The notes beneath the pieces were generated by a model. The model was not told the origin of the DNA. It saw nothing but the letters and a program-made list of their open reading frames with translations, and did no database searches. Positions 8,291 through 8,774 of a DNA stretch of 35,191 nt are shown in pieces. The translations under genes were made by a program, and so were the position numbers. Origin of the DNA: a virus (lineage: Duplodnaviria > Heunggongvirae > Uroviricota > Caudoviricetes); the IMG/VR virus record IMGVR_UViG_2713896779_000022; one strand, written 5' to 3'. Position 1 is the stretch's first letter. Each line of letters opens with the position of its first letter.

Positions 8291-8774
8291 ATGGCCATGA
8301 TGATGATCTACGGCATGTTTGTTTTTGAGCTGCGCACGCTGCCGCATCAGCAGTTACAGCAAAACAAAAGCTGGCGGCATGTGAAAAATGAGCGCGTTAA
8401 CCGTTCAGCAAGCTGGCAGTATATCGGTGCAGGTGATGATCGCATCGTTCTTTCTGGTGTGCTTTATCCTGAAATTACAGGTGGCGAAGTGTCGCTGTCG
8501 CTGCTGACCACGCAGGCGTATACAGGACGACCCTGGCCTTTGATTGATGGCTTACGGCATGTATGTCCTGACCGGAACGAATACGACCCGTTCCGAGTTT
8601 GATCGCTACGGTAAGGCGAAAAAGATAGAATTTTCACTGACCCTTGAACGCTGTGATGAGGATTTGCGGGAGCGCCTGCAATCCTCATCGTTCAGCGATA
8701 TGCTGTCCGGCTTCAAAGATAAAGTGACATCATCCCTTAACAGCGCGGCCAGTTCAGTTAAAGGGCTGTTCTGA
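8291..8774 (+). pseudogene. U: tail protein U, interrupted by a +1 frameshift near 8552
   Basis: Two overlapping frames (8291-8602 and 8544-8774) together reconstruct a ~160-aa gpU-like protein (...RPWPLIDG | YGMYVLTG...); skipping one T at ~8552 restores a single frame. Confidence 0.6.

Follow-up and report, generated by a model that had tools for sequence, protein, structure and literature searches.

The window analysed here, a stretch of 35,191 nucleotides, carries a P88-like prophage in which the tail gene gpU is divided between two overlapping reading frames. The features of this locus are as follows.

992–34353, no strand assigned: P88-like (Peduoviridae) prophage, collinear with the leuZ–yecA prophage of strain RM8352, from BLAST, annotation, and collinearity with P88 over 1500–8780
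5477–8284, + strand: tape-measure gene T, intact, from the annotation of the identical RM8352 locus and comparison with prophage CEA212U
8291–8602, + strand: 5′ fragment of gpU, from the list of open reading frames (ORFs), a Pfam Phage_P2_GpU match, and the start annotated in P88
8544–8774, + strand: 3′ fragment of gpU, from the ORF list, a Pfam match, and reading of the sequence
8551–8552, + strand: deletion junction where GTCGGGCAGAT is missing, from alignments with CEA212U, P88, and 500465-2, a junction 50-mer, and a repair test

The tail operon has the P2-type order FI, FII, E, E′, T, U, with U directly downstream of the tape-measure gene. The start of gpU at 8291, six bases past the stop of T (8284), is the start annotated in P88; the PGAP start is 8297. 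Gene T matches the intact CEA212U gene without gaps (98.3%) and has no internal stop. ORF1 (8291–8602) encodes 103 amino acids, and ORF2 (8544–8774) encodes 76 in the +1 frame relative to ORF1. ORF1 stays in the native frame for 87 codons (through ...PLIDG) and then reads out of frame for another 16 (LRHVCPDRNEYDPFRV) before a TGA stop. Both ORFs exceed the gathering cut-off of PF06995 (Phage_P2_GpU; 27.5 bits), with ORF1 matching profile positions 1–84 (E = 1.7e-24, 86.2 bits) and ORF2 positions 84–120 (E = 2.3e-7, 30.9 bits), while an intact gpU homologue matches positions 1–120 in a single stretch with 133 bits. An earlier sequence-only reading had assigned gpU to two overlapping frames at these positions, and the ORF list and the two Pfam halves agree with it.

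ORF2 encodes the final third of the GpU domain together with the region of the C-terminal helix. The nearest Shine–Dalgarno-like motif, AGGA, lies ~19 nt upstream of the ATG at 8547, so that no properly spaced ribosome-binding site precedes ORF2 and it is probably untranslated. Members of the family have a single ORF of ~160 amino acids over the full domain and C-terminal helix; the longest product of the window gene has 103 amino acids, and the gene reads as a pseudogene of the PF06995 family, not a functional member.

The prophage at 992–34353 is 99.7–99.9% identical (BLAST) to a prophage of the O121 strain RM8352, where it is situated between the glyW-cysT-leuZ tRNA cluster and yecA. Full identity of the window with RM8352 was considered and rejected: the first 991 nt and last 838 nt of the window belong to insertion sequence (IS) elements, and its fibre gene H has 132 nt fewer than that of RM8352. 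According to the population-genomics paper on O121:H19, lineages L1 and L3 have the leuZ prophage in common and in well-conserved form (PMC8767318), which fits vertical inheritance. A literature search found no description of it as P2-like in O121:H19, the population paper naming only a conserved leuZ prophage (PMC8767318). Window positions 1505–8779 align with P88 in one piece at 95.2% identity, matching the annotation, and the head, lysis, and baseplate genes are annotated as P2-type.

In Escherichia phage P88 (NC_026014; Xuanwuvirus, Peduoviridae), gpU (gp44) occupies the same place, right after the tape-measure gene T, and P88 and the window share the layout ogr(−) D(−) / FI FII E E′ T U(+). 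The P88 gene is one 495-nt ORF of 164 amino acids, whereas the window gene is 11 nt shorter and split. P88 can be induced and forms plaques, and its contractile tail is normal (PMC5285337); its 164-residue gpU is therefore taken as the functional reference. Downstream of U the two differ, with a DNA invertase and an invertible fibre segment in P88 and a hexapeptide-repeat acetyltransferase (8963–9508) in the window.

Two apparent irregularities of this region were considered and set aside. FI through U lie on the + strand, and D, ogr, and the baseplate and fibre genes lie on the − strand, which could suggest an inversion; P88, 500465-2, and others are collinear with the window over 1500–8780 in one alignment piece, so the layout is native to P88-like phages. 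Likewise, gpD might appear truncated, with a PGAP call of 266 amino acids and a Pfam GPD match beginning at profile position 48, but intact CEA212U has the same short call. The gpD ORF (1943–3184, − strand) encodes 413 amino acids without stops, the length of the annotated D of phage 500465-2; P88 annotates D as 366 amino acids. The divergent D and FI genes differ in layout from P2. Because only 25 nt separate the D ORF start (3184) from the FI start (3210), either the late promoter of FI is located within the 5′ stretch annotated as D, or D actually starts further in.

Alignment of the window gene with the intact gpU of prophage CEA212U and of phages P88 and 500465-2 reveals that 11 nt (GTCGGGCAGAT) are absent between 8551 and 8552. 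The missing bases encode V-G-Q-I plus two bases. The gap is single and clean, with perfectly matching flanks, and on inspection of the alignment no microhomology was seen on either side of it. Outside the gap, just 2 substitutions separate the window gene from P88 gpU, and putting the 11 nt back in silico yields a normal 164-residue protein. The sequence-only reading had taken the lesion to be an extra T near 8552, the removal of which restores one ORF. The alignments with the three intact homologues pinpoint the indel as an 11-nt gap instead of a one-base insertion. Removal of T8552 does produce a single ORF, since in frame terms an 11-nt deletion equals a +1 insertion, but the product has 160 amino acids and is four residues (VGQI) short of the normal 164. 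Any one-base deletion between 8542 and 8602 likewise restores an ORF. The correction from an extra T to an 11-bp deletion matters when the locus is to be repaired or typed.

The role of gpU in the tail indicates what the deletion would cost. [quoted passage not shown] P2 gpU belongs to the same Pfam family, PF06995, as the window copy, for which the hexamer role is inferred. The intact gpU homologue also aligns with residues 159–289, the C-terminal domain, of the R2 pyocin protein PA0626 (PDB 6u5b; E = 5.8e-5); PA0626 has an additional N-terminal “ripcord” region that gpU lacks. The deleted VGQI falls inside the core aligned with PA0626, and the frameshifted product is without profile positions 85–120 and the whole C-terminal helix region. 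Unlike P2 gpU and the C-terminal domain of PA0626, the window protein breaks off after residue 87 and is not expected to function. Neither tube nucleation nor tail assembly would be expected from it, because the final third of the domain and the C-terminal helix are both missing from the 103-residue product. The truncation thus bears out the earlier suggestion of an inactivating frameshift in an essential tail gene, as far as can be judged from the predicted protein. A more distant gpU homologue elsewhere in an O121 genome could complement the defect in trans; the T–U region itself is present once per O121 genome by megablast, which would catch close homologues only.

The distribution of the lesion was followed with a junction 50-mer (window 8527–8576), which seeds megablast only if the deletion is present. 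It was found in exactly 8 of the 5,426 complete E. coli genomes searched, each time with 100% identity. Where a serotype is stated for these genomes, it is always O121 or O121:H19; human, flour, and creek-sediment sources and different laboratories are represented among the isolates. The surrounding segment, window 8100–8950, is 100% identical in eight finished E. coli genomes and ~97% identical to many others, in which it is 11 bases longer. Among public contigs, the exact 101-residue N-terminal product is present on 228 and the exact 75-residue C-terminal product on 224, and the sampled contigs have the same gene neighbourhood. The intact 162-residue allele is present on at least 1,000 contigs. 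The lesion thus recurs in independent assemblies while intact orthologues exist. These data demonstrate that the gpU deletion is a real mutation carried by essentially one clone, O121:H19, for which the 11-bp deletion is a clean clonal marker. RefSeq (PGAP) already labels the gene “phage tail protein, frameshifted”, and the gene is an ordinary prophage pseudogene.

A second type of gpU lesion was encountered in other E. coli assemblies, to which a 79-residue gpU fragment of the same protein cluster led. In these assemblies Trp80 is replaced by an amber codon (TGG to TAG), and the change is present on at least three allele backgrounds, separated from one another by many differences that are mostly synonymous. 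Neither of the two flank variants of the amber allele was found in the 5,426 complete E. coli genomes. In the window, the Trp80 codon (8534–8536) lies within the Dcm site CCTGG (8532–8536). Dcm sites are mutation hotspots, and deamination of the 5-methylcytosine on the opposite strand gives TGG to TAG at this position. Since the codon sits in such a hotspot, recurrent mutation would suffice to explain the repeated appearance of the amber.

Overlapping frames in a tail operon can also be a sign of programmed recoding, and the operon contains such a site upstream of T.

5272–5278, + strand: slippery heptamer T TTT TTG, the programmed −1 site of E/E′, from the sequence, frame arithmetic, and GpE-family annotation

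The heptamer joins the chaperone gene E (4961–5326) to the GpE-family ORF E′ (5335–5490) in the −1 frame. P2 uses TTTTTTG for E/E+E′, and 5272–5278 is the genuine programmed frameshift site of the operon. The gpU split resembles the −1 frameshifts of P2 E/E+E′ and lambda G/GT in having two overlapping frames in a tail operon. It differs from them in needing a +1 shift, in having no slippery motif, in being absent from homologues, and in having arisen by deletion. A codon-by-codon examination of the overlap (8544–8602) found no codon capable of +1 re-pairing and no upstream Shine–Dalgarno-like stimulator. P88, 500465-2, CEA212U, and the allele on at least 1,000 contigs all have one continuous ORF, and because close relatives keep one ORF, the split is a recent derived state. 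Nothing supports recoding of gpU.

The state of the rest of the prophage was surveyed by mapping every coding sequence of the intact CEA212U prophage onto the window. Relative to CEA212U, conserved genes have just two indels, the 11-nt gap in U and one of 1 nt in the replication gene A. The 28 other virion, lysis, and partition genes checked are all full-length and without internal stops. With the other virion genes intact, either gpU was lost recently or the module is still under some selection. The remaining lesions of conserved genes and of the integrase gene int are as follows.

26178–26184, − strand: homopolymer A7 in gene A (A6 in the intact relative), from the alignment, the sequence, the PGAP label “frameshifted”, and translation
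34247–34353, + strand: remnant of int, the first ~36 codons, from the sequence; collinearity with RM8352 ends at 34353
34354–35191, − strand: IS3-family element in int, from Pfam matches (rve, rve_2, rve_3, HTH_21); it runs off the end of the window

The change in gene A puts the final 22 codons ahead of the normal stop out of frame, so that only about the last 20 residues are altered or lost. RM8352 shares the A7 change, and there too PGAP labels the gene “frameshifted”. In RM8352, PGAP also marks two hypothetical genes as frameshifted and a third ORF as having an internal stop, and it calls an ead/Ea22-like gene partial; these early-region and accessory ORFs correspond to approximately 23652–24227, 24331–24702, 30757–31174, and 33214–33864 of the window (RM8352 coordinates minus 132).

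The disruption of int by an IS element, noted in the sequence-only reading, was confirmed: int is cut after ~36 codons by the IS3-family element, the end of which reads TGAGGTGTACTGGCAATAGCGGACAC... and the transposase orfB of which lies at 34397–35110. This IS end is found at 24–27 places in the O121 genomes listed. Since int is intact in RM8352, the insertion is strain-specific. A second, different IS3-family element occupies window 1–991 and interrupts the spacer between leuZ and hok, and no inverted repeat linking the two elements at the window ends was found. A search of the 5,426 complete E. coli genomes found neither the left nor the right IS junction, so the window derives from a strain outside that collection and may be an entire draft contig with repeats at both ends. 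Because they are absent from RM8352 and from all complete genomes, the IS insertions are younger than the gpU deletion.

The description of the prophage as “decaying or domesticated” accordingly holds in part. Decay is evident in gpU, the 3′ end of A, and int; against it stand the 28 other intact genes and the strain-specific nature of the int insertion, and there is no sign of domestication. The prophage is recently crippled, not heavily decayed. Because the lysis genes are intact, the cell would still die on induction wherever the prophage remains inducible. [quoted passage not shown] Compared with typical defective STEC prophages it is far less decayed, with only gpU, the 3′ end of A, int (in this strain), and a few early-region ORFs hit.

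The interpretation best matching these observations, and one that is held with high confidence, is that an 11-bp deletion inactivated gpU of the P88-like prophage next to leuZ in the E. coli O121:H19 lineage, and that the lesion is clonal and no artefact. Frameshifts seen in a single assembly are often artefacts, and the gene A frameshift of the same prophage sits in an A7 homopolymer. The gpU lesion is of another kind. An assembly error is contradicted by the loss of 11 nt from non-repetitive sequence, with no homopolymer slip, and by the identical reproduction of this loss in the window, in 8 finished genomes from different laboratories and sources, and on more than 220 contigs. The possibility that the gene is intact in the real genome, which the sequence-only reading had left as an alternative, is thus excluded for all practical purposes by the identical junction in the 8 independently finished genomes and the exact products on ~228 and 224 contigs. 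A single-base insertion of T is hardly more credible. It would explain why removal of T8552 gives an open frame, yet all intact homologues exceed the restored ORF by 4 residues, the alignments have one clean 11-nt gap with perfectly matching flanks, and a separate in-frame 12-nt deletion would also be required at the same spot. A working tube initiator made through a programmed +1 frameshift in 8544–8602, or through separate translation of the halves, is very improbable as well. A +1 shift at 8552 would give a 160-residue protein lacking only VGQI, the end of ORF1 (GTT TGA T) loosely recalls the CUU UGA C site of prfB, and the remaining tail module is intact. The main objection is that the split is not conserved among homologues. 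Moreover, the overlap has neither a +1 slippery codon nor an upstream Shine–Dalgarno stimulator, and a conserved strand would still contain 16 wrong residues if the shift took place at the stop codon. ORF2 lacks a ribosome-binding site at the proper spacing, and the genuine recoding site of the operon is elsewhere, at 5272–5278.

A different question is whether the loss of gpU was favoured by selection, in that it would stop virion production and host killing while the cargo (hok/gef, the acetyltransferase, and the ParM partition genes) is kept. The allele is fixed in a successful clone, gpU was independently knocked out by the Trp80 amber in other E. coli lineages, and the other modules are kept intact, all of which could be read in this way. 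Drift or hitch-hiking predicts fixation in a clone equally well, however, and the recurrence of the amber in the Dcm CCTGG hotspot is explained without selection. The holin, endolysin, and spanin genes are also intact, so a tail-less prophage would still lyse the induced host, and the loss of gpU would protect the cell little. Selection for the loss is for these reasons unlikely. A broader form of the idea regards gpU as a preferred, possibly selected, target for knockout in resident P88-like prophages of E. coli, with lesions giving tail-less, otherwise complete prophages that the host retains. This is suggested by the 11-bp deletion being fixed in O121:H19 together with the Trp80 amber on at least three diverged backgrounds, and it is judged quite unlikely; expression of the split gpU by +1 frameshifting is still less likely than this.

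The course of events under the favoured reading, clonal inactivation by deletion, is as follows. An 11-bp deletion struck gpU of the P88-like (P2-related, Peduoviridae) prophage integrated next to leuZ in O121:H19, shifting the frame after codon 87 and leaving a 103-residue product. The truncated tube initiator would be unable to build a tail, and the prophage by itself would release no infectious particles. Probably the lesion was neutral or nearly so, marked an early stage in the decay of the prophage, and was passed on vertically; it would predate the IS insertion in int, which is specific to this strain. In the O121:H19 STEC clone the P88-like prophage at leuZ should thus make no tails and should not spread on its own, a result that matters little beyond annotation.

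Several accessory features of the prophage lie outside the gpU locus. The hok/gef toxin gene (1309–1449) adjoins ogr. A ParM/ParR-like partition pair (24766–26041) adjoins gene A and hints at a plasmid-like maintenance option in this group of P88-like phages. The tail-fibre gene H (10089–11957, − strand) contains a 132-nt tandem repeat at 11068–11463 in 3 diverged copies. The RM8352 gene H is exactly 132 nt longer (666 versus 622 amino acids), which shows that the fibre shaft varies in repeat copy number among members of the O121 clone.
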